64,000 nt of DNA from Burkholderiaceae bacterium (GTDB lineage: Bacteria; Pseudomonadota; Gammaproteobacteria; Burkholderiales; Burkholderiaceae_D). This document shows positions 4,483 through 60,183 of the stretch, piece by piece (position 1 is the first letter of the stretch; each line of letters opens with the position of its first letter). The stretch is taken from positions 1,020-65,019 of the forward strand of contig DATBRC010000065.1 of assembly GCA_036560485.1 (NCBI GenBank), written 5' to 3'. Under the pieces are notes generated by a model. It was not told where the DNA came from. It saw only the letters and a program-made list of their open reading frames with translations, and did no database searches. The position numbers and the translations under genes are program-made.

Positions 4483-4610
4483 TAATTTTTATTCTTCAGA
4501 TTTCTCTGTGGGCCAGGCACTTTACGTTACAGGACAGCATGTACTGTTCCCAAGTGCAACTAACAGTTTAATCCAAGATACCGTATTTGCAGAAAATACA
4601 GACGAAAATT

Positions 4611-30267: not shown

Positions 30268-31596
30268 TTAAATAACGGTAGCTGTTCTGGCCTCATTGCG
30301 CAGGAATCGTTCTTCAATTTCTGCCCGCGTTTTCAACCCGCGTACATCATTCGGCATCACCAGCACGCTGGCATTACCGATAATCTTGTTATGAAAAAGA
30401 TCGTCATGCGCTTGCGCCAATTGATCGTATGAATAAGTATGCGTGTTGATCACATCGATCTTCTTTTTTGAAATCAAGGTATTCGCCTGTCGGCAATCCA
30501 TGAAGTTTGCATAGTGCGAACCGATAATGCGCTTTTGCTGCATCCATAAATGACGCACATCGAAATTCAAATCGTAGCCGGTCGTCGCACCGCAAATAAC
30601 GATGCGACCAAAGCGAGCGGCCAAAAATACTGACGTTGCGAAAGTCTCGCGACCAGAGTGCTCGAATACGATATCAGGCGAACGCTTTTCACCACAGATG
30701 TCCCATATTTTTTTGCCGATCGCTTTCATCATCTGCGCTCTGCGGGTATTGTTTGCGGCAGTTTCGTATTGGTTGAATTCCACATCCTGGATTTCATAAC
30801 CCTTGAATTCAGTACGATTGATGTATCCAAGCGCACCCAATTTCTTGCAGAACTCGCCCTTCTCTTCGCTTGATACCACGGCGATTGCATCCGCACCTAC
30901 TTCACGGCATAACTGGATCGCATACGTGCCCAAGCCCCCTGCACCACCCCAGATCAATGCCAATTCGCCTGCCTTGAGTCCGCCATTAGTAATCAGCATG
31001 CGGTATGCAGTGAAATAGGTCAGCACATAGGACGCGGCATCTTCCCAGGATAGGTGGGCAGGCTTTGGAAGGATTTGCTGAGCTTGCGCAGACACAAATT
31101 GCGCAAAACTGCCGTCCGGCGTTTCATAACCCATGATCGCGACGTTGTGCCCGCTCATCGGATCGAACGATATGAAATTGGGATTGTTCAAGCCGCCATT
31201 GCCATGTTCCAGACATTGCTTGAAACAAGTGACGATGACTTCATCGCCGATCTTGCAGTTCTTCACATTCTTGCCGATCTTCCAGACAATGCCGGATGCA
31301 TCCGATCCGGGAATATGGTATTCCTTCTCGTGCAGATTAAATATGCTGATCGGTTGTCCCAGACCTGCCCATACCGTGTTGTAGTTGACGCCAACCGCCA
31401 TGACACGCACCAGCACATCATTGTCACCAACATCAGGAACAGGAAGGATCTTTTGCACCAATGCGTGCAATGGCTCACCAAAACGATTTTTCTGAATCAC
31501 CCATGCATGCATTTGATTTGGCACGACACCAAGCGCGCCATACTCCTGCAAAGCATAGATGTGAGGGTTCGTATTGCTTGAAGTAAGATTATTCAT
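30268..31596 (-). CDS. ccr: Crotonyl-CoA carboxylase/reductase family enzyme (CCR/ECR)
   Basis: 442 aa that I can align along its length with Streptomyces CCR from memory (MHAWVIQK..., VMAVGVNYNTVWAGLG, GSDASGIVW, GYETPDGSFAQF, VFEHSGRETF, FDVRHLWMQQKRIIGSHYAN). Confidence 0.85.
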   Translation of the reverse strand: MNNLTSSNTNPHIYALQEYGALGVVPNQMHAWVIQKNRFGEPLHALVQKILPVPDVGDNDVLVRVMAVGVNYNTVWAGLGQPISIFNLHEKEYHIPGSDASGIVWKIGKNVKNCKIGDEVIVTCFKQCLEHGNGGLNNPNFISFDPMSGHNVAIMGYETPDGSFAQFVSAQAQQILPKPAHLSWEDAASYVLTYFTAYRMLITNGGLKAGELALIWGGAGGLGTYAIQLCREVGADAIAVVSSEEKGEFCKKLGALGYINRTEFKGYEIQDVEFNQYETAANNTRRAQMMKAIGKKIWDICGEKRSPDIVFEHSGRETFATSVFLAARFGRIVICGATTGYDLNFDVRHLWMQQKRIIGSHYANFMDCRQANTLISKKKIDVINTHTYSYDQLAQAHDDLFHNKIIGNASVLVMPNDVRGLKTRAEIEERFLRNEARTATVI

Positions 31597-31618: not shown

Positions 31619-34600
31619 TCAAACTGTTATTTGTAAAACCGGCGCATGAATTGACTTGGTTAATTCAATCAAGTTCTTCTGATAGCGTTGCGCAAGCTTT
31701 TCAATATCGGTTATTGCAAACCGGCTCTTGTCGAATGCAAATCTTACCCAGGTTTTTTCTTCCGGAACGATAAAAACACGCAAAGGAAATTGCCAGCCGT
31801 CCGTCCACAATGCCGCAATGGTTTTAATCGGCAGCTCAACTCCGCCAGAATCTGCTCTCGGAATATTCTCGAAAATAAAATTGCTTGAATAAAGGTTGTC
31901 ATTCCCGGTATGTCCAATTGCATTGGCAATCTGCTTCAACGACGGCAGGTTATGCGTTTGTGCTTGGGCATTTGCTCTATGTACAACTTGCAAAAGCTGT
32001 GCCACCGTCATATCCGAAGCTAATGACACACGAACAGGAAGTGAATTGGTGCACTGTCCGATAATTTCTGTAATGCCGTCGAAATCCGCCGAGCGTCCGG
32101 ATACCGTTGCGCCATATACGACATCGTTGGCGCCACTCAACTGCGCCAATGAGAGTGCCCATGCGGCCTGAAATACCGCGTTGCTGGTTGTTTGACTCGC
32201 CCTGGCAGTTTCCTGAACCGAGTTGAGCAAATTATCATCAATGACGAGTTGAGATTCTGCATAAGAATCTTCTGCCTTCGTTATTGAAGAAGAGGCAGAC
32301 ATCAAGCTTTGCAATGGTTCAACGTGGCGATAACCATCGAACGCCTTGCGCCAATGGAGCAGTGCGTCATCGAGTGACTGTCGCTCCAACCAATCGATAT
32401 AGCGTCCAAAATCAGCTTGATTCTGCATTGCCGGCAGATCTTTACCCGATACCATGCTCATCAAACACATGATTAAATCCTTGCTCAACAAACTGGATGT
32501 CCAGCCATCGAGAATGATTTGATGATTCGACATGACGATTGCGAAGCGTCCTGCTTGTGGCGACAGCATGACCCAGTACAGCCGCAATGCTGGCGCCTTC
32601 GACAAATCGTAACGAGTCAATCGATCCTTGACCTGCAATTGCATCAGCGCTTGCTGTTGGCCGGCTTCATCGAGATGTGAATAATCGAGTTCAATCAATG
32701 CAAAATCAGCATGCTTGCAAACGACCTGCGCAGGTTCGCCATTGACATCATGCATGAAGCGTGTACGCAGCACTTTATGACGCGCTACCAGTGCTTGCCA
32801 AACGGCTTGCAGCAGCCTCTTGTCTATCGGCCCTTCCATCACCGTCACTGCCTGCGTAACGTTAGCCAAGGGTTTGCTTTCATCGCTGTAACGCCGATAA
32901 ATCTCAGATTGAAAAGCAGTGAGACCGTAGCAATCTTCAATCTGATCGGCACTGATACCGCATGCCTGCAAAGTCGCATCCGATATCTTATGGCGGGAAC
33001 CTGATGATTGAATTGCATTCCAATCGGCATTGGACAGCGCCTGCAAATTTTCAATCAAAGTGTTCAGCAAACCTTGAATCGTCGCCTCATGATATTGCTT
33101 CTTGCTGAAGTTCCAGTTCAGCGCGATTTGTCCATTCTGGCTATAGGCAATGACATCATGCTGATAAAGCCGTTGGTTGGAAGGATCGCGCAGTGTGCGG
33201 ATCGCATCTTGCGCGTCAGTGGTCATGCCGCCGGCAATCAATTGATTGATCTGGCCGATGTAATTTAAAGAGATTGCCGCTGCCGGTATTTGCGACAACA
33301 TCTTCCTGACAGTCAGGTCGTCATGCAAAGTCTTCAGCCATGCGAGACTTAACCCTTGTTGTGGAACGGATTGAATCTGTGACTTGAGTGAAGCAAGTTG
33401 CGACGTTAATGGCGATGCAGATAATTTCAACGGGATCGGGCTGCCTGTGCCGAACCAGCCGACTGTTCTGGAAAAATCCATAGTATCGAAATCCGGCCGG
33501 CCGTGGTGCACCATATCAATAATAACGTTCGGCTGTTGCTGCCAGTCGCTTATGGTTTTGGCCAGCACCGCAAGCAACAGTTCATTGATCTTCAAGCCAG
33601 TATGCTTGGCTGCCTGCTGTGATAATCGTTGCGTGGAATCAGCATCCAGCGAAGCGGACAATGACGCAATATCGCCCTCCAGATTCGAGCCTCGCGCAAT
33701 ATCGATAGACATTTCACACGGTATCTTCGCTACCTCACCGGCAACATTTTGCCAATACAGAAGATCGGCTTGCAAAGATGCGACCCTGGTCGGCAAACCG
33801 GTAGAAAAATCCTTATACGATGTTGTCTTGGCCGGCAACAGCTTGGCCATATCGGTTTTTCTATCGGTTGCTGACGCAGCCAAAAGCGTCTGCAAGTCTT
33901 CGATCACAATTCCCAGTGAGATTGCATCCATCACCAGATGATGGAAGAGTAGTGCCAGCTTGTTATGTGCAGAATCCGCCGCTTTGAAATAGGCCAGCTT
34001 GAACAGCGGCCCGTTTTCGATATGCATCTCCGATTGCAGCCGCTGGCAATGCTGTTGTACCTGCTCCGAAAAAGCGCCACCTGTTGTCGAAGTCAGATCA
34101 ACCCATGCAACATGCTGATCGCTATTCGCTGACGTGTAGGTCTGTTGCCATGCGCCCTGCTCGTTACGAACAAAATGCGAACGCAGCACGTCATGTTGTT
34201 CCAGCAAGCACAGCACCACCATCTTCAATGCTGGCTCAGAAATAGTCTGCGTGACATTCAGTAATGCTCCGACATTCCAGTGATCCTTGTTGGACCATGA
34301 CGTGTTCAGGAACTGTTGCTGTATCGGCGAACAAGGCGATGTCCCCATGACCAGCGATTGATCGACGATGACAGCATTTGATTTTTTCAGGTTTTTGACG
34401 ATCTCACCAATAGTCGGTGTCGCGAACATTTGCTTGGTCTCCAGGAACAAGCCCATCTTCTTCGCCTTCACGACGATCTTGACGCCCAACAGCGACTCAC
34501 CGCCCAGCTCGAAGAAATTATCATTCACACCGATCTTGCTGATGCCCAGCGTTTCCTGCCAGATGGATGCCAGCAGCTTTTCTTCGTCGGTGGAAGGCGC

Positions 34601-37600
34601 GACATATTCTGTCGATAAACTGGGCCGCTCGTAGAGCGACAGATTATCCTGGCCTGCCGTTGTGTCTGATTCATTGGTATCGAAATCGGCCAACAGCACG
34701 TCCGACATTTTGCGATTCTTGCGCAGCAGCTTCTGAAAGTCAGTGGTCGAGATAACAGCTTGCGGCTTGCCGGACGATAGCGCACGATAAATGACATCGA
34801 TGCCTTCCATCGGCAGGATGGCAGTCTTGTTATCCTGCTGCTTCTGGCGCAGCACACTGTCATTTTGCGCCTTGACGGCTTGCTGCGGCGTATTCCAGAC
34901 ATCCCAATTGATGCTCACATATCGTGTCGCCGGATCATCCCGATGCGCATGTGCGATCGCATCAAGATAGGCACATGCGCTGACATAGCCCACCAGCCCA
35001 TAACCGGTGGTGGCAACCGACATCGATGAGCAAAGCAGAACGAAATCCAGTTTTTCATTCTTCAATACTTGAAGCAAATTGTCAGTACCAGCGACTTTCG
35101 GCGCCAGCACGGCATCGATGATGTCTTTCGATGTTTCCTTCACCGTCACGAACTCGCCATAACCGGCGCAATGAATCAAGCCATTGATAGCGCCGACATT
35201 CTTACGTATCTGCTCGACTGCATCAGCCAATTGCGCTGCATCGGTTACGTCAGCCTGCACAACCGTGACGGTCGCGCCTTGAGCCTGCAAGGCCTTGATT
35301 CCTTTGATCTGCTCTTTCAGCAGTGCATTCTCGTTTGCATCGGCAAGCAATGCATTCCACTTTTCTTCAGCCGGGAAAGCGCTACGCTGCAGCAATACCA
35401 AACGCGTCTTGTATGCAGCCAATGCTTGTGCATGCACCATGCCGACACCACCCAGACCGCCAGTGATGACGTAGATGCCATTTTGTTTGATATCGACATG
35501 CTGACCTGCATTGTCTTCGGTCACTAAAGGAATGTAATCTTTAACAAAGCGTAAGTTGTTTCTGAGCGCAATGGATGTATGGACTACTGAAGCGCCATTT
35601 TGCGCTGTCAGTATTTGCAACTCATTGAGAACAAACCGTATGAAATCCTCTGGCTTTGTTGTCGCCGCATTCACATCCAGCGTGACAAAACGGATATTCG
35701 GATGTTCATACGGAATGACGTTCGCCGGGCCGGTAATCAACGCCTGTGAGCAATCAACCTGGTCGGCATCCAATATGGCTTCGCGCTGATTGGTAATGCC
35801 GACGATGTTGACCATGTCGCTGTTGTTCGCCTCTAGTGCCTTCGCAAGATAGACGAAACTCAAATGAAGATTGGTGCGCAGTTGATCCTGATCTGTGGCA
35901 GATGACAAACTCCAGCCATGAAAAATTGTTTTGGGTGTCGCGTTTAAATCGATGAGGCGTTTAAGCAATAGTTGATAGTCGTTGCTGTTACCGGCAGCAA
36001 TTTCAAAATTATCTTGATCAATTTCGCTAAACTTTGCTCCCTGCGTCACGCAAACGACACGCGTGCCCTTCGTGCGCAATTGCACAATCACACCCTCACC
36101 ATAACGACGATCGTCAAGCAATGCCAATACTGTGCCTTGATCATCAGCTGCTGCTTGCGCCGGCTTGCGCTCTTCGAGGCGCCAACCTGGTTGCCATAAC
36201 CAATCCGCTATCGGCAGCTTTGCACCAGCGTGCGCAACGTCTTTCCTGTTCTCTACCCAATAACGCTTGCGATCAAACGGATAACCTGGCAAGCCGATGC
36301 GCTTGCGCTTTTCATCGGCATAAAAAGCTTTCCAATCAATGTCGATACCGGCGATCCACAGCTTGCCCATTGTTTCCAGCAAATGCGATTGATCGTCCTT
36401 CTCTTCCTTGATGTGTCTGAGCGTATTCAACAGCACTGCTTCCGATTTTTCCGGCAGTTGAGCGCGGACGAAACTACTAAGCGCATTGCCTGGTCCCATT
36501 TCAAGGAATATCGTATTGTCGTCTTTAAGCAGCATCGCTACGCCGTCAGAGAAAAGAACGGTCCGGCGCAAATGATTTTTCCAGTAATCTGCCGTGCTGA
36601 TTTCGCTTTGTTCGGCCCAGCCACCTGACATGTTCGAGATAAACGGGATCGACGATTTACCGAACTTGACCTTCGATAAGAATTGCCCGAATTCCTGCAT
36701 GATCGGATCGATCATCGGCGAATGACCCGCCGTATCGATCAACAATTTTTGATACTCGATCTGCTTCGCATCCAGCAGTTTGCCAAATTCCAGCATTGGT
36801 GTATGCCGTCCGGCCACAACGCAACGGCCCGGATCATTGATGGTCGCAATCGACACACCATCAATCAACATCGTTTTGACTTGCTCGGCAGGCAATGTCA
36901 CGCTGAACATGCTGCCCTTCTCGATTTTTTCGAATAGAGCGCCTCTGAAGCAAATCAGATCCACTGCCTGTTCCAAAGTGAATATGCCTGCTATGCAGGC
37001 TGCGGTGTATTCGCCCAAACTGTGGCCGATCATTGCATCGGGCTTTACTCCCCATGACATCCACAGTTTGGCCAAGCTGTATTCGACCGCAAACAAAGCA
37101 GCAAAGAAATTTTTCGGCTTTTGCAGAATGACGCTATGCGGTTCGGTGTGTGCGTCATCCGGATAAATCAAATCGATCACATCCAGATCCATCTTGCGCT
37201 TGAACAAGGCAGCACATGTATCCAATGTCTGCTTGAAATATGGCTCCTGCTCATACAGGTCGCGCGCCATATTCACATATTGCGTACCGCCGCCTGGAAA
37301 CATGAATACGATTTTCTTTTGTTTCTCCGGTCTCTTGCCTGCAAATCCTTTGGTCGGCGCAATGTTCGGCGCAATGCGACTTAGTTTTTCTGCGGGCACC
37401 ACGAAAGCGCGGCGAAAGCCAAAACCTTTACGGCCAACTTGCAATGTATAGGCAACATCGGCAATGCTTTCGTCGGAAGTCTTGGCCATGTAAGCAGAAA
37501 GATTTTCCGCCATCCTGTCGAGCGCGCTCGGCGTCTTGGCTGACAAAAGCAATAATTGCCACGATCGGCTTTCCGACGATTCCGCTTCCGGCGCTTCTTC

Positions 37601-38932
37601 CAGCACGATATGCGCGTTGGTGCCGCCGATGCCCAGGGAACTGACACCTGCTCGGGCCGGATATTCACCCGGCTCTATCCGTTCCAATTTATCGATCACA
37701 TAGAACGGACTGTTTGCAATATCCAGCTTCGGATTCGGACTTTCGAAATGCAGACTTTCGGGAATGACCTTGTGCTTGAGCGACAACGCAGCCTTGACGA
37801 TGCTCGCTGCACCGGCAGCTACACCAAGATGGCCGATGTTGGTCTTGACCGAACCGATGCCGCAGAAATTTTTCTTGTCGGTTTCCAGACGGAATGCACG
37901 TGTCAGTGCAGTGAACTCGATCGGGTCACCCAATTCAGTTGCCGTACCATGTGCTTCGATGAAACGGATGCTGTCCGGCTCAACGCCAGCGACAGCCTGC
38001 GCCTCGGCAATGATGTTGGTCTGACCGACTATGCTTGGTGCGGTGTAACCGATTTTTTCCGAACCATCGTTATTGACGGCCGAACCTTTGATCACTGCGT
38101 AGATCGTATCGTTGTCAGCCAGCGCATCATCCAGACGTTTGAGCAAGACAAAGCAGGTGCCTGCACCGCCTACTGTGCCTTTTCCTTTTGCGTCGAACGC
38201 GCGGCAGTATCCATCGGGCGAGCTGTAGCCGCCTTGATGGTAGACATGGCCGGTGCAATTCGGCGTGGCGAGATGCGATCCGCCCGCAAGCGCCATTTTC
38301 GATTCGCCGTTCAACAGGCTTTGGCATGCAAGATGTATGCAAACCAGTGAAGTCGAACAGGCAGTGCCCAGTGCAACGCTAGGACCGTTCAGATTCAGCT
38401 TGTATGAGATGCGCGATGCAAACATGTCCTTGTCGACGCTGATTTGCGTATCCAGCGCATCGCCTCCCGCAGTCGCCTCATCACCCTTGAGCAAATTGAA
38501 AATGAAATACGTGCTCATGTTCACACCGGCAAATACACCGACGCTGCCATTGACTGACTCCGGTGTATAACCGGCATGTTCCAGCGTTTGCCATGCGACT
38601 TCCAATGCAAAGCGATGTTGCGGATCGAGATTGGCCGCTTCGCGCGGGTTCATCTCGAAGAAGTGCGCATCGAACTTGTCCTGATCCGGAATGAATCCAC
38701 CTGCCGGAACAAAATGAGGATCGGCAAGTGCAGCCGGTGCTACGCCCATCTTTGCCAATTCATCCAATGAGAAGCGGGTGATGCAATCTCGCGAGCTGAC
38801 AAGATTGGTCCAGAACTCGTCGACACTATCCGCCATCGGAAAGCGTCCCGCCATGCCGATGATGGCGATATCATTATTCACGTCGTCGTAGTCGTCGTGT
38901 TCTTCGCTTGCGTAATCTTCTTTGGTTGACAT
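31619..38932 (-). CDS. Hybrid PKS/NRPS: KS-AT-KR-PCP-E(like)-C, 2437 aa
   Basis: KS Cys in GTACSTSLV (Cys192, 38357-38359). AT GHSLGE (Ser638, 37019-37021). KR Rossmann ITGGLGGVG. Carrier FFELGGESLL (Ser1480, 34493-34495). HHLVMDAIS (33938-33943). Terminal SNHQIILDGW (32522-32527). Confidence 0.95.
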   Translation of the reverse strand: MSTKEDYASEEHDDYDDVNNDIAIIGMAGRFPMADSVDEFWTNLVSSRDCITRFSLDELAKMGVAPAALADPHFVPAGGFIPDQDKFDAHFFEMNPREAANLDPQHRFALEVAWQTLEHAGYTPESVNGSVGVFAGVNMSTYFIFNLLKGDEATAGGDALDTQISVDKDMFASRISYKLNLNGPSVALGTACSTSLVCIHLACQSLLNGESKMALAGGSHLATPNCTGHVYHQGGYSSPDGYCRAFDAKGKGTVGGAGTCFVLLKRLDDALADNDTIYAVIKGSAVNNDGSEKIGYTAPSIVGQTNIIAEAQAVAGVEPDSIRFIEAHGTATELGDPIEFTALTRAFRLETDKKNFCGIGSVKTNIGHLGVAAGAASIVKAALSLKHKVIPESLHFESPNPKLDIANSPFYVIDKLERIEPGEYPARAGVSSLGIGGTNAHIVLEEAPEAESSESRSWQLLLLSAKTPSALDRMAENLSAYMAKTSDESIADVAYTLQVGRKGFGFRRAFVVPAEKLSRIAPNIAPTKGFAGKRPEKQKKIVFMFPGGGTQYVNMARDLYEQEPYFKQTLDTCAALFKRKMDLDVIDLIYPDDAHTEPHSVILQKPKNFFAALFAVEYSLAKLWMSWGVKPDAMIGHSLGEYTAACIAGIFTLEQAVDLICFRGALFEKIEKGSMFSVTLPAEQVKTMLIDGVSIATINDPGRCVVAGRHTPMLEFGKLLDAKQIEYQKLLIDTAGHSPMIDPIMQEFGQFLSKVKFGKSSIPFISNMSGGWAEQSEISTADYWKNHLRRTVLFSDGVAMLLKDDNTIFLEMGPGNALSSFVRAQLPEKSEAVLLNTLRHIKEEKDDQSHLLETMGKLWIAGIDIDWKAFYADEKRKRIGLPGYPFDRKRYWVENRKDVAHAGAKLPIADWLWQPGWRLEERKPAQAAADDQGTVLALLDDRRYGEGVIVQLRTKGTRVVCVTQGAKFSEIDQDNFEIAAGNSNDYQLLLKRLIDLNATPKTIFHGWSLSSATDQDQLRTNLHLSFVYLAKALEANNSDMVNIVGITNQREAILDADQVDCSQALITGPANVIPYEHPNIRFVTLDVNAATTKPEDFIRFVLNELQILTAQNGASVVHTSIALRNNLRFVKDYIPLVTEDNAGQHVDIKQNGIYVITGGLGGVGMVHAQALAAYKTRLVLLQRSAFPAEEKWNALLADANENALLKEQIKGIKALQAQGATVTVVQADVTDAAQLADAVEQIRKNVGAINGLIHCAGYGEFVTVKETSKDIIDAVLAPKVAGTDNLLQVLKNEKLDFVLLCSSMSVATTGYGLVGYVSACAYLDAIAHAHRDDPATRYVSINWDVWNTPQQAVKAQNDSVLRQKQQDNKTAILPMEGIDVIYRALSSGKPQAVISTTDFQKLLRKNRKMSDVLLADFDTNESDTTAGQDNLSLYERPSLSTEYVAPSTDEEKLLASIWQETLGISKIGVNDNFFELGGESLLGVKIVVKAKKMGLFLETKQMFATPTIGEIVKNLKKSNAVIVDQSLVMGTSPCSPIQQQFLNTSWSNKDHWNVGALLNVTQTISEPALKMVVLCLLEQHDVLRSHFVRNEQGAWQQTYTSANSDQHVAWVDLTSTTGGAFSEQVQQHCQRLQSEMHIENGPLFKLAYFKAADSAHNKLALLFHHLVMDAISLGIVIEDLQTLLAASATDRKTDMAKLLPAKTTSYKDFSTGLPTRVASLQADLLYWQNVAGEVAKIPCEMSIDIARGSNLEGDIASLSASLDADSTQRLSQQAAKHTGLKINELLLAVLAKTISDWQQQPNVIIDMVHHGRPDFDTMDFSRTVGWFGTGSPIPLKLSASPLTSQLASLKSQIQSVPQQGLSLAWLKTLHDDLTVRKMLSQIPAAAISLNYIGQINQLIAGGMTTDAQDAIRTLRDPSNQRLYQHDVIAYSQNGQIALNWNFSKKQYHEATIQGLLNTLIENLQALSNADWNAIQSSGSRHKISDATLQACGISADQIEDCYGLTAFQSEIYRRYSDESKPLANVTQAVTVMEGPIDKRLLQAVWQALVARHKVLRTRFMHDVNGEPAQVVCKHADFALIELDYSHLDEAGQQQALMQLQVKDRLTRYDLSKAPALRLYWVMLSPQAGRFAIVMSNHQIILDGWTSSLLSKDLIMCLMSMVSGKDLPAMQNQADFGRYIDWLERQSLDDALLHWRKAFDGYRHVEPLQSLMSASSSITKAEDSYAESQLVIDDNLLNSVQETARASQTTSNAVFQAAWALSLAQLSGANDVVYGATVSGRSADFDGITEIIGQCTNSLPVRVSLASDMTVAQLLQVVHRANAQAQTHNLPSLKQIANAIGHTGNDNLYSSNFIFENIPRADSGGVELPIKTIAALWTDGWQFPLRVFIVPEEKTWVRFAFDKSRFAITDIEKLAQRYQKNLIELTKSIHAPVLQITV
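31622..32965 (-). other. Terminal condensation domain (DCL-like); last domain of the line
   Basis: IEDCYGLTAFQSEIY and SNHQIILDGWT. The protein ends right after this domain, with no A, T or TE. Confidence 0.7.
32978..34360 (-). other. Epimerisation-like domain lacking the EGHGRE glutamates
   Basis: SPIQQQFL, FHHLVMDAISLG, MVHHGRP (33494-33511) in place of EGHGRE, and SRTVGWFG. Confidence 0.65.
34388..34615 (-). other. NRPS-type carrier (PCP) domain serving the PKS module
   Basis: YVAPSTDEEKLLASIWQETLG...FFELGGESLLGVKIV. This is the PCP-style GGxS motif rather than the ACP-style LGxDS. Confidence 0.75.
34733..36235 (-). other. KR domain incl. structural subdomain (approx. aa 900-1400)
   Basis: GIYVITGGLGGVGMVHAQAL (35401-35480 region). 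Catalytic region SSMSVATTGYGLVGYVSACAYLDA. Confidence 0.65.
36383..37300 (-). other. AT domain (approx. aa 545-850) with a TAGH specificity motif
   Basis: FMFPGGGTQY, GHSLGEYTAA, and IDTAGHSPMI with TAGH at 36722-36733 (aa 734-737). Confidence 0.75.
37598..38875 (-). other. KS domain (approx. aa 20-445)
   Basis: DIAIIGMAGRFP..., GTACSTSLV, EAHGTATELGDP, GSVKTNIGHLGVAAG. Confidence 0.8.
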
Positions 38933-38964: not shown

Positions 38965-41900
38965 TTACCGCGACGTCTTGCGCTCACGCGAACGATTTCG
39001 ACGCTGCATTGCAGCGCGTCTTTCTTGTCCGGCATTACGCGCTGCATCTGCGGCTGGAGCGGGTGTTTGACCACCATGCTGCCCGAGGAATATTGCCAAC
39101 TTCTCAATAGTGGTGGAATTGAACAACTCGACCATGGGAAACTCGATATTCATTTGCTGCTGAATCTCGTGATGCAGTTTGACGATCAAGAGCGAATTGG
39201 CACCGACATCGAAGAAATTATCCTTGATGCCGATCGGCTCTGCCGCGCCGAATACGCTGGTGGCAATCGCCGTCAGCGTTTCTTCCAGCTCATCGCGTGG
39301 TGCAATTTTCTCTACTTTGGCTGAGCCGGACTGTGCAAAAGTTTTGCGTAAAGCTGCCAGATCAATTTCACCGCTTGCTGTTTTTGGCAAAGACTCAACC
39401 TGAATATATTGCACATGCAATGACAAACCAAATTCGTCGGTTAGCACTGCTTCAGCGGCAACCTCATTCGTGATGCCTGGTTCATTGGCCGCGAAATAAC
39501 ACACCAGCTGTCGATCCGACGGTTGAACGTCCGTCACCAGCTGTCGAATATTGGGTCTGGTATCGTCCAGGCCGATCAGTACATTGCGGCGGCCGTGATA
39601 CAACACCACCAGCATCGAGAACAATCCCTTGCTCGCCACAATCGGTGTAAAGCCGAGTGCTTTCGACAAACTCTCCGCTTGCTTGTACTGGCTGCCCATG
39701 CCGGTGTCATGCCAGAGACTCCAGCTGATGCACACGCTACGGACATTTTTGTTGTCGCGCACCGATTCGACAAAGGCTTCCTGATAACGATTGCCGATGT
39801 TGTACGCCGCCATGCCGCTGCCGCCGAAGAATCCATTGACCGACGAAAAATTTACAAACAAGGTATCGGTCCTGTGGTTGCAAATGTTATAGAGCACGCG
39901 CGTTCCGGATGTCTTGGCGCGCAGCACATCATGCAAGCTGTGTATCGTTTGTCCGGCCATCGCTTCTTCATGCGCCAGACCGGCAAGATGAAATACACCC
40001 GCCAATTTTTGTTTCCACTCTGCTTCCGCTTTGTCCACAGCAGATTCGACCGCCGCATGGTTGCAGATATCCGCATCGGCATATTGCACATTGCCCATGC
40101 CGGCGAGCTGATCCAGCATGTCCTTCTTGTCGGCCGGCAGTTTTTCCAACGGTGTCCTGCCGATCAACAATAATTTTGCGTTAAATTGTTTCAACAACAT
40201 CCTGGCGAGCTCGTAACCAATTCCGCCCAGCCCGCCCGAAATCAGATAACCGCCGCCGGAGACGAGCGGCATCTCGCGTTTTTCGCGAATGACCCGGCGC
40301 TCCTTGCGCAAGCGTACGACAAGCCGCTTGCCATCGCGGTAAGCGACTTCATCGATTGCATGATAAGTCACGATTTCGCGCTTCAACCATGCTGCATGGT
40401 CGGCGATATCATTGCCTTCAAAATCTACATGGTGACATTTGAGCCATGCAAATTCTTTTGGCAAAGTCTTCATCAGCGCCAGCGTAGCCGCCTTGTCGGG
40501 GCTGATGACATCGCTGCCATTCACGCATTGTGCTTTGCGTGCAGCCCAAATCCAGCGCATGGTCGGCGGCGTCTCCAATGCAGCAAATGCCTGCGCCAGA
40601 TACCATGCCGAATACAATCCGATCGCATCGGACAACGTGGCTTTAGTCAACAGCGCATCGGCAGTGCGTGCATTCGATTCATAATCCCACAGGTTCACGA
40701 CACGGCTGATCGTGATTGAACGTTGGGTCAGCGATGCTACCAACTGCACGTAATGTTCCTGTACGCCCGGATTGATTTGATAAGAATCGCCACGGTCTTG
40801 ATATGCCTGCCCCTGTGTAACTGTGATCACATGGCCCGACAAACCAAGTGCAGCCGCGCAACCTGCAAAGTCGGCAAACACAAGCGTCGCACCGACAGGA
40901 GATAACTCGACCACATTATTCAAACGCTTTTGCACCCATGTCTTGCTGAACGACCAATCAGGCAATGTGTTCTCATTGCGCTCCGCCAGATCGAGTGCGC
41001 GCAATGCATAATCGAATTCACCACGATTGAATGATTGCGCTAGTTTGATTAATTGAATCTTGCCGATTTCCGTCTTCGGCACCTGATCTTTTTCCACCGG
41101 AACAATAAAGGATGGATTGATGCCGATTTTTTCCACGACGGCTTGACGAATCAGTTTGATCAGCCCCAACAGAGGTTCGCCTTTTTGCGCGGTGTTGAAG
41201 AAAATCGCCAGCTGATCGCTGTTGCTGCCATTGCGGCGCACTGCGCATGCGCCGGTATAGGACACCACGACGCCTGGCACGGTTTCCACCACTTCGGCAA
41301 TCTCATGACCGTAGAAATTCACGCCATTGATAATGATGACGTCTTTCTCGCGCCCGGTGATTGTCAATTCGCCATTCTGGATGAATGCCAGATCACCTGT
41401 CTTGAACCAGCCATCCTGTGTGAAAACATCCTTGTTGACGTTCTCACCGCCCAGATAGCCCTTGGTCACTGTCACACCGGATACTTGCAAACGGCCGGAC
41501 TGCCCTTCCATCATCACCTGATCATGTTCATCGACGATACGCATGTTGACACCCGGGATCGGGCGTCCTACCGAAACGAATACCGTGTCATCGCTGCCGT
41601 AAGTCAACTGCAGACGTTTTGCATAGGTCACACCGGATGAAATTTCAGACATGCCGTAAACAGGTTTCACCGAATCTTCAGCAAGCTTGAATTGTTGCAG
41701 CAGCTCGATGAACGCCTGCGTAGTTTTCGGCACCACGGCTTCTGCACCGTTCAGCATGAAGTGCAGGCAACTTAAATCAAGCGTCAACTTCTTCAGTTCC
41801 TCCTGACGCTCGACAATCAAAGCGAAAGCAAAATTGGGCGCCCAAGTGATATTGACCCTATGCTGATCGATCAATCGCAACCAGCGCAACGGATCGGCCA

Positions 41901-44900
41901 GGATGTAATCCGTATCGGCTTGCACTTGTGTCGCGCCAAGATACGCATCGCGGATATGGAAGTAGATGATGCCACCGACGTGATCCAGCGCCATCCAGTT
42001 CAACGACACCATGTCGGAATGGAAGCCGTTCATTTGTGCCGAACCGAGTGTGCGGCCAATCAGGTTGGCATGGGTCAGCTGCACACCCTTCGGCAAACCG
42101 GTGCTACCCGATGTCAGCATGATCAGCGCCACATCATCGGATGCGCCTTGATGGAAATCATGCGCTGGTTCAGCTTCATACAACGATGTAATCTCATGCA
42201 CATCGAAAGCGTCGATCTTCTCCAGCGTACCGATATGGCGCACGCCTTCAACAATATTTTCACCGGCGAGGACGATCGCCTTGTCCATCATGTTCCATGC
42301 ATGCGCAACTTTGACAGTTTGCGCATTGCTGGTTCGGTAGTTCTTTGCTGCTGCGATTGGAACCGGAATGAAACCGCCTAACTCACAAGCCCAGAACGAG
42401 ACGATGAAATCCTCGTTCCGATCGAATTGAAAAATAACCTTGCTGCCAACCGTCAATCCCGTTGCGCGCAAACCGCCCAACACACATTGCGCTTTATGCA
42501 GCAGCTTTACATACGACATGCTGGTTGTCGAGTTATCTGCATGGTAAAACTCGATGACCTTGTCGCCATGTACTTGTGCCGTATTGATGATCATGTCGGC
42601 CAAACTATTTGGACGTCTGATCACCTCAATGATCGGCTCGCTGATGATGAGCGCAGGAGACTTCGATATCGATTCGTTGTTGATTTTTCTGGTCTTGCTA
42701 ACAATCGATGCAGCATTGCCGCTTGTACCGCGCGCCTCTATCGGCAACAAGTCGAGCAAATGCGATACCGGCTGCTGTTCGCTGATCATTTGCGATATGA
42801 CCACTGCCTCATTGATCTTGCCAATTTGACTTACCTTGCCTGTCCACAATTGTCTTGTCACCGGATTGTGCACTGCATACTTGTACAACTGCCTTGCATT
42901 GACTTCGCCATGTCTGGTCAACGGAATCGCGCCAACCTTGACACAAGCAAACACGTTGATATCTGTGAATCCAGATGACTGCAGATACTGTGTGAAATCC
43001 TCTGCATCCGGCTCTTCATCTTTGCAAACCAGATAGACAACGATTTGATTACCTAACTCGGCATGTTCCCGAATCGCGACATGGCAATCCTGCACATCAG
43101 GTCTCGTCAGCAACTGCTGTTCGACGACACGTGGATATACGAGTTGATTATTGATCAATGCAACATCGTCGACAGACGACAACAAGACCAGTCCATTGGC
43201 AGTCTGGCGTGCGGTGAAACCGCTGGCCAACAGCTTATACAAACGGCCGTTAATGTTTACTTCAGCGATGCGGCCATTCAAAAGGGTGGACGTATCCGTC
43301 TGGCCTTTTATCTCGAAATACAATTTGCCAACAACACCATGCGGCACGGCATTACCTGTGGCATCAAGAAGATAATAATTCGCGATATCGCTTTCCGACA
43401 CAATTGCTTTGCCATATAGCGCACGCAAAATCGGATAGGCATCCAGCGTAATTGAAGCAGGCGTAATCGCGTTATCGGGTGCAAGCGATAGTCCGGACAC
43501 CTTATGCTGCGGACTGGCAATAATGGCATTCAGCAAATGAATGAATGCCGATACGAAGCCCTGAATCGTTTCGCGTTTAAATAGATCGGTGTTGTATTCA
43601 AAACTGCCGGACAAGCCATCGGGCGTAGTCATGAACTCCAACAGCAAATCGAACTTGGCAGTCTTGTTTTCCAGTGCGATGTTGTCGATCGTTATACCGG
43701 GCAACGTGAAGCTGTTGGCCGCTGCATTCTGCTGGAATGAAAATGACACCTGGAACAACGGCGACCGCGATGGATCGCGCTCCGGCAGCACCAAGTCCAC
43801 CACCTTTTCAAACGGTATGTCCTGGTTCGAATAAGCTTCCAGCGTAGTTTTCTTGACCTGCTGCAGCAATGCCGCAAAAGTCGGATCGCCATCCAGATCG
43901 GAGCGTAATGTCAGCGTGTTGGCGAAGAAACCGATCAACGGTTCAATTTCGGCACGCACTCGATTGGCGATCGGTGTGCCGATACTGATATCGGTGTCAC
44001 CCGAATATTTGCCAAGCATCACATTGAATGCGCTCAACAAGGTCATGAACAAGGTAGCGCCTTGATGATGGCTCAACTCGTCCAGTGCAGCGACCATCGC
44101 TTTGTCGATGACAAATGAGGCACGGTCACCGTTGTAAGTCTGATTGCGTGGCCGCTCAAAATCCAGCGGCAATGAAAGCGTCGTCAGATCTTTAAGCTTC
44201 TTGCTCCAATAAACACTTTGCTGTGTCAGCACCGGCCCTTGCAGGTATTCGATTTGCGATACCGCATAATCGGCATACTGCACCGGCAAGTCCTTCAGCT
44301 TCGCTGGAGTCTTGCTCACATTAGCTGAATACAATGCCGTGATTTCGTTGATCAATATGTTAATTGACCAGCCGTCGGCAATAATGTGATGCATGTTGAT
44401 GAATAATCGATATTCATCATCGGCAAACTTGCACAGCGAGACGCGTAACAAGGCATCAGACTCAAGATTGAAAGCCGTCTTTAGCTGTGCATCGATATAA
44501 GCAGAAAATTCTGCTTCCTTCTCTTCAACAGTTCCACCCTCAAGCTCGATTACATCCATAGCCCAATCGATCGATGAGTGAATCTTCTGGAAGCCCTGCC
44601 CTTGATCCGAGATGAAATTGGTGCGCAGTACTTCATGCCGTCCAATCAACGTGACGAAAGCATGGTTAAGCGCATCGACATCCAGGTCGCCGACGATCTT
44701 CATCACGCTCGGCATGTGATAGAAATTGCTGTTCTCTTCGTAACGGTCAAGGAACCACAAGCGCTGCTGTGCGAAGGACAGCGGCACCTTGTCGCGCTGA
44801 TCGAGAATACGAATCGGATTTTCAACGTAGCTCGCGTTGGCGTGTTCGATCACAACCGCAAGGCGCTCAATGGTTGAATTTTCGAAGAATTGCTGCAACG

Positions 44901-47900
44901 ATAATTCGACACTGAATTCCGACCGAACGCGCGCAACGATCTTCGTGGCCAGCAATGAGTGGCCGCCCAGTTCAAAGAAATCGTGGTGCGTGCCGATATC
45001 CTGGATATTGAGGATGCCGGACCAGATATCAGCCAGTCGCTTCTCAACCGGCGATTTCGGCGCGACATACAAATCGTCTTCACCTTCGTTGAGCGGATAA
45101 TTCTGCAGCGCGAGACGATCGATCTTGCGATTCGGCGTCAGCGGCATTGCATCCAATTCCACAAACAATGACGGCACCATATAGTTCGGCAACTTCTCGC
45201 TGACCACTTTGCGCAATTCTGCCGAAGTAAGATGATGCGCATGATCTAATCGCGCATAGAAACACACCAGCCGTGCCAAGCCCTGCTCGTCATCGCGACT
45301 GTTGACCACGACTTCCACAATGCCCGGCACAGTGCGCAATACATCTTCGATTTCAGTCAACTCGACACGGAATCCGCGGATGCTGACCTGGAAATCTTCG
45401 CGGCCGATGAATTCAATTTCGCCATTCGGCAAATAACGCCCAAGGTCGCCGGTCTTGTACATGCGTGACGTTCTGTCATCGCTGAACGGATTCGGAATAA
45501 AGCTCTTTGCCGTTGCTACCGGATCATCGACATAGCAAGTCGCCAGACCAACGCCGGCTGTATGAATTTCGGCAATCACACCGATCGGCACCTGCTTCAG
45601 GTTTTCATCCAGCAAGTACATTTGCGTATTGGGGAATGCCTTGCCGATGGTGAGTTTTTCGCCGACTTGCCTGTACTCATACAAAGTCGAACCGATCGAC
45701 ACTTCCGAATTGCCGTACAGGTTAAGGAAGCGCACACCAAGCGCCGTCCACTTCGCCACTACCGCATCGTTGCAGGGCTCGGCGGAGGAAACCACCACAC
45801 GCAGACTCTTGGGCATGCGATCCACCGGGACGGTGGACAGCAGCGACACCGGCCAGGTCACGTGGGTAATCTGGTTTTCTTCCATGAATTCGTACAAGGG
45901 TTCGTCCGGCAGGTTTTCCTTGGACGTAACGCTATAGATGGTGCCGCCAGGCACCCACGCCATGTACGTGCCCCAGAACGCGATGGAGAAACTCAGCGAA
46001 GCGAACTGCAGCACGCGGCTGTCGGGTGTATGCAATCCGGCCCACTGCTGCGAATTCGCCATGTTGCGGAAGGCGCGATGGCCAACCAGGATACCCTTTG
46101 GCTTGCCGGTGGTGCCGGAGGTGAACAGGATATAAGCCGAATGGCCGGCGCCAATGCGCGGCGGATTGGAGATGGGCTGCGACTGGATCGCGTCCCATTC
46201 TGTATCGAGGGCGACGATCTCGGCGCCAGTATCGGCGAACAGCGGCTTCAAGTGTTCCAGCGTCAAAATGATTTTCGGCTTGGCGACGTCGAGCATGCGC
46301 TCGATGCGGTCCTTGGGATAATTCAGGTCGATGGGCACATAAGTACCGCCGGATTTGGCGACCGCCAGCCCGCTGATGCCGGCCCAAGTCGAACGCTCGA
46401 CCGAAACGCCTACCCTTGCCTCGGGGCCGACGCCGCGGCTTTGCAGGAAATGTGCGAGCCGGTTGGCGCGCGCGTTCAATTCGGCAAAGGTAAATCGGTC
46501 ATCGCCGCAGACATATGCCAGTTTGTTCGGCATGCGTTGCACGGTGCGCTCGAACAAGTGGTGCATACATTCGTCTTGCGGATAATCGATATCCGTTGCA
46601 TTCCAGCGTCGTACCTGCTCCATTTCCTCTTGCGTTACCACCGACAGTTTTTCGATGGCGATCGTGGAATCCGACATCGCGGCTTCCAGAATGGTCTGGT
46701 AATGCTTGGCAATGCGCGCGACCGTTTGCTCACTGAAAATGTCGGTAGCAAACTCGATCACGCCTTTCAGGCCATCGCCTGTTTCTGCCAATGAGAAATT
46801 CAAATCAAGCTTGGCGCTTTGTGTCGGCAGGTTGATCAGTTCGCTGCGCAATCCGGCAAACGAACTCGTCTGTGCCATTTGCTGATTATGCAAACGGAAC
46901 ATCACCTGGAAAATCGGCGGCACACCAAGGCTGCGTTCAGGCTGTACGGCTTCCACCACGCCGTCGAACGGCACGCTGCTATTGCTGAATGCTTCCAACG
47001 CTTCATTACCTACTGCGGCAACCAGCTGCTGGAAATTATCTTTCGCATTGACGCGGCAACGAATCACCAATGTATTGGCGAAGCAACCGATCAATGGCTC
47101 CAATTCCTTTTGCGGACGATTGGCAACGGCTGTACCAACCGGAATATCGTTGGTGCGTCCATAACGCGACAATAAAATCGCGAGGCCTGACAACAGCAAG
47201 TTATACAAGGTCGTATTGTGTTGCCGCGCATACTGGTTCAGGCGCGCTGTCAAACTGAACGGCAAACTGATCGGCAATTCCTTGCCGCGATAACTCTGAA
47301 TCGGCGGACGCGGATAGTCGAGCGGCAGATTCAGCAACGGCGCCAAGCCATCCAGTTTCTTCTTCCAGAAATCGGTCTGCTTGTTGAAGGTATCGCCGAC
47401 GATATTTTTCTGCTGCCATTGCGAATAATCGCCGTATTGCAATTCGAGTTGCGGCAATGGGCTCGGTTTACCGGCACTAAAGCTGCTGTAGAGCGCAATC
47501 AACTCGTTCATCAGAATATTGAGCGACCATCCATCTGCTACAACGTGGTGCACCACCAACGTCACGACATGATTGTCGTCGGCGATACTCAATAGACGAA
47601 TGCGTATCGGCAATTCGTTTTCAAGGTCGAATATATAAGTGAAATCGGCGCGCACCTGTTCTTCGACATCTTCCTCGGCGACCTGCACGATCTGCAGCTT
47701 GAACTCGCTTGCAGGAACGATTGCCTGTAACGGCTCGCCATCCCTGGACGGGAATAAGGTACGCAACGATTCATGGCGCTCAATCAACGCATGGAAAGTT
47801 TTCTGCAATGCCGTAACATTCAACTCGCCATGCATACGCATTGCAAATGGAATGTTGTAGGTATAGCTGCCGCCCTCAAGCTGATGCAGGAACCAGTATG

Positions 47901-50900
47901 GCTTTTGATCGAGCGATAAAGGAATCGAACCAGTTTCTTCCCGCTTGCTGATCGCAGGTAAAGCCGTTCCAGGTGTGTCTTCCTGTCCAGCTAAAAAGAT
48001 CGCCAGCGACTCGACAGTCGTATGGGTAAACAAATCCTTGATCGTCAGCGGCAAGCCCAGTCCATCCTTGACGCGCGATACCACTTGCACCGCAAGCAGC
48101 GAATGCCCGCCGATCTCGAAGAAGTTGCGATTGACGCTGATATTTTTCTGGCCGAGCACTTCAGTCCAGATTGCTGCGATCTTTTCTTCCAGCGGATTTC
48201 TCGGTGCAACGTATGCGATGCTTTGATCGTCGTCCAGCGTAGGCTTGGGCAAACCGAGACGATCAACCTTGCGGTTAGGCGTCAACGGCATTGCATCCAG
48301 TTTCACAAACAGCGATGGCACCATGTAACTCGGCAGCTTGCGGCTGACCAATGCGCGCAACTGTCCGGCATCGAGACCCTGTGCGTCCGGTTTTTCGACA
48401 TAGAAGCACACCAGACGTCCAACCTTGTTTGCATCGAGCTGGCTGACTACAACGACTTCGGCGATGCCGGGCGCGGCACGCAAAACGTTTTCAATCTCGA
48501 CCAGCTCTACACGGAAACCGCGGATGCTGACCTGGAAATCTTCTCGACCTATGAATTCAATTTCACCATTCGGCAAATAACGTCCCAAATCGCCGGTCTT
48601 GTACAAGCGCTCCGGCTTCCCCTTTGCGAATGGATTGGGGATAAAGCTATTGGCTGTCGCTTCCGGATTATCCCAATAACAGGTTGCCAAACCGGCCCCT
48701 GCCGTATGAATTTCTGCGATGACACCAATCGGCACTTGCCGCAAATGTCTATCGAGCAGATACATGCGTGTATTCGGGAAAGCGACGCCTATCGTCAGCT
48801 TCTGGCCGACTTTGTGATACTCATACAAAGTGGAGCCGAGCGACACTTCTGAATTGCCATACATGTTCAGGAAGCGCACGCCGCGCGCAGTCCAGCGTGC
48901 GACGACGGCATCGTTACACGGCTCAGCCGAAGAAATGATCGTTTGCAAACTGTTCGGCATGCGCTCAACCGGCAAGGTTGATAACAGCGAGACCGGCCAT
49001 GTCGCGTGCGTGACTTTTTCACGCTCCAGCAATCCATAAAGTGATTCGCCGGGCAACGCTTCGTCTTGTGTCACAGCGATCAACGTCCCGCCAGGCACCC
49101 ACGCCATGAAGCTGTCCCACATCGAGATCGAAAAGCTCAGCGATGCAAACTGCAACACACGATTATTCGGCGAGTGCAGTTTTGCCCAGCGATGCGATTC
49201 CGGCATGTTGCGGAAACTGCGATGGCTGATCAGGATTGCTTTCGGACGTCCGGTCGTGCCGGAAGTGAACAGGATATAAGCCGAATGATCCGCGCCGATA
49301 TGCGGCAGGTTCTCCGTCGGTTTGGAGGCAACCGTTTCCTGGATCTGCTCGACGTGAATGACTTGCGCAATCCTGTCGTCGAACAGTTCGGAAATTTCAT
49401 CAGTCGTCAAAATGATCTTCGGCTTGACCACATCGAGCATGATGTCGATCCGCTCTCTCGGATATTTTGGATCGAGAGGAACATAGGTGCCGCCAGCCTT
49501 GAATACTGCCAGCATGCTGACGCCAGCCCATGACGTACGGCCGACGCTGACGCCGACCCGTACTTCCGGTCCGACACCAATCGATTGCAGATAATGCGCG
49601 AGCTGGTTTGCCTTGGCGTTCAATTCTGCATAGGTAAAACGATCATTGCCGCACACATAGGCCAGTTTGGCCGGCATCTTTGCACAGGTTTGTTCGAACA
49701 GATGGTAGACACATTCATCCGTTGGATACGGAACGACTGTGTTATTCCAGTTTTCAACCAGATCGAATTCTTCTTTGGATAAAAGATTCAGGCTTTCAAC
49801 TTCTGCATCGGGATGTACCATCGCCGATTCAAGCAGCAACTGGAAATGGCGCGTGATGCGGCGTACGGTTTTTTCCGAGAACAGGTCGGTCGCATATTCG
49901 AGAATGCCTTCGATGCCGGCATCGGTCTCAGCCAGTGAGAAATTCAAGTCGAGCTTGGCGCTTTCGCTCTCGATATTAATCAGTTCAGCTTCAAGATCGG
50001 CGAATTGAATACCTTGGCCAGTCTTGTGATTATGCAGGCGGAACATCACCTGGAATAACGGTGGGACGCCCAGGCTGCGTTCAGGCTGCACTGCGTCCAC
50101 CACGACATCCAGCGGCACTTCCGCATGTTCATAAGCATCAAACACAACGCCATTGACGCGCTTGACCAGATCGATAAAGCTGCGGGTTTGATCAACCTTG
50201 TTACGCAATACCAGTGTATTGGCGAAGCAGCCGATCAATGGTTCCAGATTGGTCTGCGAGCGATTGGCAATTGCCGTGCCGACGACGATGTCTTCACTAC
50301 GGCTGTAACGTGACAGCAGCACATTCAAACCAGCAAGCAACGTATTGAAAAGTGTTGTATTGTTCTTGCGCGAAAATGCATTCAGCGCTTGCGTCAATTC
50401 AAACGGCAGCACAAAACCAACTTCCCTGCCGCGATAACTTTGCACCGGCGGTCGAGGATAATCGGTTGGCAGATCGATCATCGGCGGCACGCCCTTGAGC
50501 TTGTCGCGCCAGTAGCCGACCTGCTTCTCGTAATAAGCACCCACCAGATTCTGCTTTTGCCAAACAGCATAGTCGCCGTATTGCACCTGCAGTGGCGCCA
50601 ACGGATTTTCCTTTTGCGCGACGTGGGCGTTATACAGCTGCGCCAATTCTCCCATCAGGATTCCCAACGACCAGCCGTCGGCCATCGTGTGATGCAACAA
50701 TACCGTCAATACATAATCGTCATCGTATAGCTTGTGCAGCACTGCACGGATCGGAATCTCTTTTTTCAGATCGAACACATGGCGCGCATCCAGTTCAATC
50801 TGTTTGTCGAGGATTTCCTTGTAACGATTATCTTTTTTACTGTCGATAATCAGCTTGAATTCAGGCGAAGGTAAAACCTGCTGCAACGGCGCGCCGTTTT

Positions 50901-59973: not shown

Positions 59974-60183
59974 ATGAGTCACCGAGAAGACAGTGATGAA
60001 ACCATCTATAAGGTTGTCATCAGTCACGATGAACAATACTCAATATGGCCCGCACACAAAACCCCTGCACGTGGCTGGAGTGAGACTCAAACGCAAGGCA
60101 CCAAGGGAGAATGTCTGGCATTCATCAAGAGTACCTGGACCGACATGCGTCCAAAAAGCTTGCGGGACAAGATGGTTAATTGA
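59974..60183 (+). CDS. MbtH-like protein
   Basis: GGAGACAAGG precedes the ATG at 59974. Sequence ...YKVVISHDEQYSIWPAHKTPARGW...LAFIKSTWTDMRP carries the MbtH Trp signature. Confidence 0.9.
   Translation: MSHREDSDETIYKVVISHDEQYSIWPAHKTPARGWSETQTQGTKGECLAFIKSTWTDMRPKSLRDKMVN

Follow-up and report, generated by a model that had tools for sequence, protein, structure and literature searches.

A 64,000-nt stretch of DNA from an uncultured Burkholderiaceae bacterium (metagenome-assembled genome GCA_036560485.1, contig DATBRC010000065.1 of 624,732 bp, positions 1,020 to 65,019; hereafter the window) encodes a polyketide synthase (PKS) protein with an unusual but not unprecedented ending. The protein (HEY8102377.1, the sole member of its 90%-identity cluster) is specified by one open reading frame of 2437 aa at 31619..38932 on the minus strand. 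Its ketosynthase (KS), acyltransferase (AT) and ketoreductase (KR) domains are followed by a peptidyl carrier protein (PCP), an epimerization (E)-like domain without the catalytic glutamate, designated E*, and a final condensation (C) domain. There is no thioesterase (TE), with which most textbook bacterial assembly lines end; endings in a C domain are rarer.

The most economical reading is that a carrier–E–C (T-E-C) cassette of nonribosomal peptide synthetase (NRPS) origin has been grafted behind the PKS module. We propose, with a probability of about one half, that an orphan lipo(depsi)peptide-polyketide line is ended by this cassette, in which the terminal C domain would off-load the chain and E* would be an accessory.

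The T-E-C end of the PKS protein

Pfam placed KS at residues 20–397, AT at 542–864, KR at 1152–1347 and a PP-binding domain at 1453–1513, followed by two Condensation-superfamily stretches, the last at 1999–2435. The PKS module itself occupies 34892..38875 (minus strand), with KS at residues 20–450, AT at 542–864 and KR at 949–1347, the N-terminal subdomain of the KR beginning at residue 949. The AT motifs GHSLGE and TAGH were read from the translation. Neither Pfam nor motif reading revealed a dehydratase (DH) or enoylreductase domain in this module. The interval 31622–34615 corresponds to residues 1440–2437 and covers the carrier, E* and the terminal C domain. The strings quoted for this protein in a preliminary description of the DNA (YVAPSTDEEKLLASIWQETLG, GGES, SPIQQQF, HHLVMDAIS, VHHGRP, SRTVGWFG, IEDCYGL and SNHQIILDGW) were all located in the translation.

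The carrier (residues 1445–1520; 34373..34600, minus strand; PF00550) has its phosphopantetheine serine, Ser1480 (nt 34493–34495), within GGES. Its best relatives in the Protein Data Bank (PDB) were NRPS PCPs that precede E domains (LgrA T2, PvdL, McyA, TycA and GrsA; 4e-30 to 7e-14), not acyl carrier proteins (ACPs). The carrier is therefore of the PCP type, as described before, and specifically of the E-associated type. This supported the earlier suggestion that the entire T-E-C cassette behind KS-AT-KR came from an NRPS.

E* (residues 1531–1985; 32978..34342, minus strand) was assigned from PDB matches and motif alignment. It matched E domains, including TycB, TycA and BacC, at 1e-62 (PvdL) to 5e-38 (GrsA), and ordinary C domains at about 1e-8, which placed it in the epimerase lineage as previously claimed. 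The HHxxxD motif, H1664-H1665-LVM-D1669, retains the second His (TycA H743). It lies within HHLVMDAIS (residues 1664–1672; HHLVMD at nt 33926–33943) and is invariant in all nine E* domains of the family.

In place of the EGHGRE motif, E* has VHHGRP (residues 1808–1813; nt 33494–33511, minus strand). In the PvdL alignment, iidmVHHGRPd of E* lies under lvqlEGHGREa column for column, with V1808 at the position of TycA Glu882. Both glutamates are lost, as the preliminary description had it. TycA has EGHGRE at residues 882–887, and its deposited E882A mutant has LAGHGRE; therefore the catalytic Glu is the first of the motif. This mutation removes 99.5% of the coupled activity of TycA (PMC8905534). 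Judging from these motifs, E* can no longer use the classical two-base (His/Glu) epimerization. Its setting also differs from that of an E domain acting on an aminoacyl or peptidyl thioester supplied through an adenylation (A) domain: KS-AT-KR lies upstream, and the module has no A domain.

A survey of 270 proteins gave 370 E-type motifs corresponding to EGHGRE, of which 358 begin with Glu, and Val was found at that position only in this cluster family. Every E* of the family has Val or Ile at the Glu position and keeps HHLVxDA; the other motifs in the family are VGHGRP, IGHGRE and VGHGRS. His1809 (33506–33508, minus strand), beside the lost Glu, is shared by the window and its three closest relatives, all with VHHGRP, and is Gly in more distant members. 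It may be a lineage-specific compensating base. Eight further E-type domains were seen without the first Glu, having F, G, T, T, Q, K, G or D instead. They occur in proteins P0008, P0122, P0155, P0220, P0252 and P0256, several of them at or near the C-terminus.

Of the conserved features of 120 canonical E domains, E* has preserved HH, D, S, HGR, D1819, RTVGWF and NY(L/I)G, and all nine family members have HH, D, S, HGR, RTVGWF and NY(L/I)G. At sites that are 75–97% conserved in the canonical domains, the family has fixed the changes E1808V/I, W1673L, R1674G/S and T1828G, and also G1670A, L1534C, Q1554V and GxGYG to GLSLA. Pairwise dN/dS values were 0.21–0.24 for E*, 0.04–0.07 for KS and 0.12–0.28 for KR, so that E* is under purifying selection although it lacks the Glu. 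Because the substitutions are fixed in the family, the motifs are kept and dN/dS is low, E* looks like a remodelled subfamily rather than a decaying relic.

A short E–C linker (residues 1986–1995; 32948..32977, minus strand), which some relatives without E* retain, leads to the terminal C domain (residues 1996–2437; 31622..32947, minus strand; Pfam and PDB matches). This domain matched the DCL-type C domains of PvdL, McyB, BacC, TycB1 and SrfA-C at 6e-52 to 1e-35. Among C domains of other types, the best scores were 5e-22 to 6e-22 (Txo1 and TycC), and the fungal terminal C (CT) domain of TqaA scored 9e-12. The DCL lineage proposed earlier was supported, because the C domains that follow E domains scored best.

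The catalytic second His had been described as retained, which was incorrect. The active-site motif is H2137-Q2138-I-I-L-D-G (HQIILDG at 32504–32524), and Q2138 lies beneath the second His of the PvdL motif NHHILID. The motif is therefore HQxxxDG, with Gln in the catalytic place. His2137, formerly put forward as a target for mutagenesis, is the first (structural) His, and the informative residue is Q2138.

The second-His position is occupied by His in 115 of 120 canonical DCL domains. The canonical E and DCL domains were both drawn from a representative-sequence search with E*, the ranking of which was dominated by giant multi-E/C NRPSs and included only one representative of the family, P0165. 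[N/Q]HQIILDGW is invariant throughout the family. Outside the family, HQxxxDG was found in 17 C domains, nearly all of them directly after E domains in multimodular NRPSs, and an A domain directly follows the HQ-type C domain in three proteins checked with Pfam. HQxxxDG is thus a recurrent natural variant of the C-domain motif; a literature search for it as such gave no match. Because ordinary elongating DCL domains have it too, the variant does not necessarily make the terminal C domain inactive. The NRPSs with an HQxxxDG DCL domain after E include P0123, P0136, P0146, P0154, P0193, P0197 and P0237, in some of which every such domain has it.

Other DCL-conserved sites are also changed invariantly in the family: Tyr to N2024, Leu-Phe-Ile to Q2293-C2294-T2295 (motif C5) and Gln to H2318. 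The dN/dS of the terminal C domain was 0.13, similar to those of KR and AT, and about 150 of its columns are invariant.

The stop codon (31619–31621) directly follows the terminal C domain. The absence of A or T domains beyond it, noted previously, was confirmed, and the PKS protein has no TE or reductase (R) domain there either. No C-terminal docking extension was seen in the translation. In its position, as the last domain of the final module without a TE or R domain in cis, the terminal C domain resembles chain-terminating C domains, and it lacks the A-T acceptor module that follows a DCL domain. By its score with TqaA and its HQxxxDG motif, it falls outside the fungal CT clade, which has SHxxxD. 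Another bacterial PKS ending in a C domain was noted, P0117 (1465 aa, 26 member sequences), with the order KS-AT-PCP-C and the motif SHxxxDG like fungal CT domains; it is unrelated to the present family.

Related loci and the loss of E*

Related loci were collected by a scan of one genome per species. Ten had the layout A-KR-T, KS-AT-KR-T-(E*)-C, crotonyl-CoA carboxylase/reductase (CCR). Seven belong to Paucimonas and other Oxalobacteraceae/Burkholderiales, and three to Cellvibrionaceae (Agarilytica). The terminal C domain is present in all ten, again as the last domain without a TE or R domain in cis, and in all metagenomic relatives.

E* is present in only five of the ten loci (L001, L003, L008, L009 and L010). 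Close homologues of the PKS protein showed 88% (one), 70–72% (two) and about 54% (three) identity, and in the last three the carrier is directly followed by the terminal C domain. In neighbour-joining trees of KS-to-T or of C, three loci without E* (L005, L006 and L007) formed a clade with the E*-bearing P0165 at 99–100% bootstrap, and L002, also without E*, was placed outside this clade. A single clade of all E*-less loci was recovered in 0 of 300 bootstrap replicates. The two E*-less groups also differ in the boundary of the deletion, one retaining and the other dropping the E–C linker. Because the E*-less loci are not monophyletic and two boundaries are found, E* is most likely ancestral and would have been lost at least twice. 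These losses, in clusters that otherwise stay intact, showed that E* is dispensable.

The loss of E* was accompanied by a change next to the C-domain motif. Residue 2136, immediately before HQ (32525–32527), is Asn in all ten E*-bearing sequences and Gln in all seven sequences lacking E*, in both loss groups. Convergent columns correlated with E* numbered 3 of 433 in the C domain, versus 1 of about 1395 in KS-to-T (two linker columns excluded). This hints that the active site of the terminal C domain may sense the presence of E*, in a sample of two events.

Stereochemical typing of the KR was tried as a clue to the role of E*. It gave none, because the KR lacks both the LDD and the W motif, and its active-site stretches are identical between relatives with and without E*. 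That E* is conserved yet dispensable would suit a domain that presents the chain or acts as a scaffold, or else one with a modest tailoring reaction, such as one-base enolization leading to dehydration or inversion.

In the ten loci, no conserved acceptor or tailoring gene was found 3′ of the PKS gene. Only the CCR gene recurs there, together with a type II TE gene in the three Cellvibrionaceae loci. The other downstream neighbours are lineage-specific (P450, PHB-depolymerase-like esterase, glycosyltransferase, FtsH and TonB receptor). The cytochrome P450 gene lies between the CCR and type II TE genes in Agarilytica loci L009 (12764–14164, plus strand) and L010, and is not present in the window. 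A literature search for a characterised product or cluster of the family, including Paucimonas nonribosomal peptides and Agarilytica biosynthetic gene clusters, gave no match. The cluster is thus an orphan lipopeptide-polyketide family.

The cluster, the proposed route and chain release

The PKS gene forms an operon with an NRPS gene and the CCR gene, with gaps of 32 bp and 22 bp. The NRPS (6840 aa; 38965..59487, minus strand; Pfam) has the order FAAL-ACP-(C-A-T)x4-C, a stretch of about 260 aa, and A(keto acid)-KR-T. Its last 1200 aa matched the keto-acid A-KR-PCP module of StsA (6ULW) at 5e-207, and it would hand its chain to the KS of the PKS protein. By eye, the A domain of module 1 shows a specificity code that is partial and Ser-like (DVWH).

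The CCR gene (30268..31596, minus strand; TIGR01751, 457 bits versus a cut-off of 379) lies 22 bp downstream of the PKS gene, which it adjoins in nine of the ten related loci. CCR is likely to supply the alkylmalonyl extender. Three genes are divergent from the NRPS gene. They encode an MbtH-like protein (59974..60183, plus strand; PF03621, 5e-17), a free-standing type II TE (60256..61005, plus strand; PF00975, 6e-49) and an Sfp-type phosphopantetheinyl transferase (60986..61771, plus strand; PF01648 and PF22624). With 249 aa, the type II TE agrees with its class, whose members are stand-alone PF00975 proteins of about 250 aa encoded in NRPS/PKS clusters, and its homologues adjoin the PKS gene in the Cellvibrionaceae loci (L008–L010). 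It is either an editing enzyme or a rival release enzyme.

Within the NRPS, the A domains of modules 3 and 4 (approximately residues 3300–3800 and 4380–4880) read LQFASLSFSI(S/A)(M/F)W instead of the expected FDxS. Ser takes the place of Asp235, the residue binding the substrate alpha-amino group, and NxYGNSE that of NxYGPTE. From these motifs, both domains probably activate something other than a standard alpha-amino acid. The roughly 260 aa that separate the fifth C domain from A-KR-T (residues ~5338–5599; ~42700–43480, minus strand) received no Pfam assignment. By eye this stretch resembles the C-terminal part of an A domain, and may be the remnant of one that was replaced.

The flanks look unrelated to the cluster, with a Liv-type ABC transporter, an alpha/beta hydrolase, FlhC and an IS200-type transposase. 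The IS200/Y1-type transposase gene (62610–63338, minus strand) lies about 0.8 kb past the phosphopantetheinyl transferase gene, and the ABC transporter operon and flhC are at the other edge. Such surroundings would fit insertion of the cluster as an island. The alpha/beta hydrolase (29394–30245) was considered as a release enzyme and discarded, since none of the related loci has a homologue and its gene lies at the end of the Liv-type ABC operon.

In the route that we infer, the NRPS would make a fatty-acylated peptide with an alpha-hydroxy acid end. The PKS module would then add one CCR-derived alkylmalonyl unit and reduce it. The TAGH motif of the AT is typical of ethylmalonyl-type ATs. With this AT, the adjacent CCR gene and a KR without DH, the PCP should carry a 2-alkyl-3-hydroxyacyl thioester; the alpha-branched beta-hydroxyacyl substrate suggested earlier is thus plausible. 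The PCP, E* and the DCL-type C domain would act as an NRPS T-E-C cassette fused behind the PKS module. E* would either present the PCP-bound chain to the C domain or slightly alter it before release, through one-base enolization by His1665.

The terminal C domain, with its HQxxxDG motif, would then off-load the acyl chain onto a nucleophile not borne by a downstream module. It was taken as the off-loader because it is the only post-carrier domain in every relative, and no acceptor or nucleophile gene is conserved. The nucleophile would most likely be an internal hydroxyl, for example that of the Ser-type residue of module 1, yielding a macrolactone; water or a small free nucleophile would be the alternative. 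The type II TE would clear mis-primed carriers.

Several points weigh against this route. With the second His gone and the changes at N2024, C2294, T2295 and H2318, the terminal C domain could be non-catalytic, or catalyse something other than acyl transfer. A type II TE accompanies the cluster even in distant lineages, and it could be what actually releases the chain. Against a purely passive spacer role of E* speak its retained HHxxxD and the Asn/Gln change at residue 2136, which co-varies with the presence of E*. The assignment of Ser to module 1 depends solely on the partial code.

The preliminary description had regarded the terminal C domain as the only candidate for release, and had reported no TE. 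The latter holds in cis; the type II TE gene inside the window means that the terminal C domain is not the sole candidate. If this enzyme hydrolysed the chain off, the terminal C domain would be a scaffold or gatekeeper without catalytic activity, in the manner of the glycopeptide-synthetase X domain or the LovB CON domain. The location of its gene in the cluster, and beside the PKS gene in Cellvibrionaceae, agrees with this, as do the HQxxxDG motif and the replacement of several DCL-conserved residues; the terminal C-like domains of LovB and MokA were also among the weak PDB matches. However, type II TEs are usually editing enzymes, and HQxxxDG is shared with elongation C domains that must condense. 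The strong purifying selection and the family-invariant polar residues around motifs C3 and C5 also point to a tuned active site rather than a scaffold. Release by the type II TE is a serious rival, though we consider it unlikely. Continuation of the line is far less probable still: the terminal C domain would join the chain to the aminoacyl-PCP of another protein, with its gene in a different part of the genome. Subunits of NRPSs that stop at a C domain, with the line resumed by a partner starting with A-T, do exist, for example McyE, but no protein starting with A-T was found in the window, nor any such partner within 10 kb downstream in the ten related loci, which span two bacterial classes, and the terminal C domain has no docking extension behind it.

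The remaining alternatives concern the chemistry of E*. It is conceivable, though we would hold it only tentatively, that E* is the first epimerase-fold domain recruited to polyketide chemistry. His-only enolization of the 2-alkyl-3-hydroxyacyl-PCP would then lead to dehydration or C2 inversion, coupled to a re-tuned releasing C domain; the coupling is suggested by the motif-adjacent change from Asn to Gln at each loss of E*. A narrower version, which seems rather unlikely to us, makes E* a one-base surrogate for DH: His1665 would take the C2 proton, no Glu would be there to re-protonate, and the enolate would expel the 3-hydroxyl. The module indeed has a KR and no DH. HHxxxD, NY(L/I)G and RTVGWF are invariant in nine E* domains at just 33–54% identity, and the changes at E1808, W1673, R1674 and T1828 are fixed in the family, so that the site looks remodelled and not decayed; dN/dS is 0.21. 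The Asn/Gln switch in both independent loss lineages and the convergent C-domain columns (3/433 vs 1/~1395) suggest that the C domain receives a different substrate when E* is present. Beta-eliminating domains of the C superfamily are known, and one of them, AmbE, was among the PDB matches of the terminal C domain. On the other hand, no E-lineage domain is known to dehydrate, and no residue stood out as a new acid for the departing hydroxyl. The co-variation comprises only two independent events, and loss of E* without visible change in KR or carrier equally fits a passive role. It is improbable that E* is still an epimerase, setting C2 for a D-specific DCL donor site with His1809 or water as the base instead of Glu. 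Its T-E-DCL order is exactly that of epimerizing NRPS modules, a His stands at the second motif position in the window and its closest relatives, and about 2% of other E-type domains are likewise Glu-less. Against this are the near-complete loss of activity in TycA E882A (PMC8905534), the lack of conservation of His1809, the hydrophobic Val/Ile fixed at the Glu position, and the operation of the same C domain without E* in half of the loci.

Relation to known systems

The ending of chains on PKS modules by a C domain is poorly understood. The closely related clusters with and without E*, one of the latter in the cultured Paucimonas lemoignei DSM 7445, constitute a natural experiment. A comparison of their products would reveal the effect of an epimerase-fold domain on a polyketide intermediate. 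If E* acted as a DH surrogate, E*-bearing relatives would have a 2-alkyl-2-enoyl terminus and E*-less ones a 3-hydroxy terminus. The same comparison would reveal whether a C domain with Gln for the 'catalytic' His can release a chain. The answers bear on the long debate over the second His of C domains. They are also relevant to engineered hybrid synthases in which T-E-C cassettes would serve as portable termination units.

The closest system in sequence, for all three domains, is the NRPS PCP-E-DCL tridomain (the PvdL module, PDB 9LCQ; TycA/TycB1; GrsA PCP-E). The domain order, the E–C linker IEDxY(P/G)LT and the HHxxxD of the E domain are shared. In contrast, the cassette here lies behind KS-AT-KR instead of C-A, the Glu (TycA E882) is replaced by Val or Ile, no A-T follows the C domain, whose motif is HQxxxDG, and the presumed substrate is a polyketide thioester rather than an aminoacyl or peptidyl one.

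For the release itself, the model is the cyclization proposed for TqaA, with its fungal CT domain, and for Cma9, in both of which the C domain is likewise last, with no TE or R domain after it. Cma9, an APD-cyclolipodepsipeptide synthetase, ends in A-T-E-CT, with an E domain directly before CT, and a cyclizing release has been proposed for it (PMC13110770). Unlike these CT domains, the terminal C domain here is of the DCL lineage (9e-12 with TqaA versus 6e-52 with PvdL), has HQxxxDG instead of SHxxxD or HHxxxD, is attached to a PKS module, and follows an E domain without the Glu.

A literature search for architectures of the KR-T-E-C type matched only a paper on fungal PfaA. Its relatives are PKS-NRPS hybrids with the order KR-ACP-E-C1-C2-A-T-CT, in which the E domain after the PKS carrier was noted and left unexplained (PMC11731387). 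What they share with the present family is the placing of an E-type domain right behind a PKS carrier and, after it, C-type domains whose His motifs are imperfect. They differ in being eukaryotic iterative highly reducing PKSs, in which E is followed by a complete NRPS module, and were compared by architecture alone.

The X domain of glycopeptide synthetases, the CON domain of LovB, the dehydrating CmodAA domain of AmbE and the C5 domain of NocB also combine the C/E fold with altered motifs, and serve as scaffolds or in C-alpha deprotonation and beta-elimination. None is of the E lineage or follows a PKS KR–carrier pair, and the likeness is by analogy only; AmbE scored 1e-18 with the terminal C domain and 7e-7 with E*. 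Release by a terminal C domain and degenerate domains of the C/E fold are both known from other systems.

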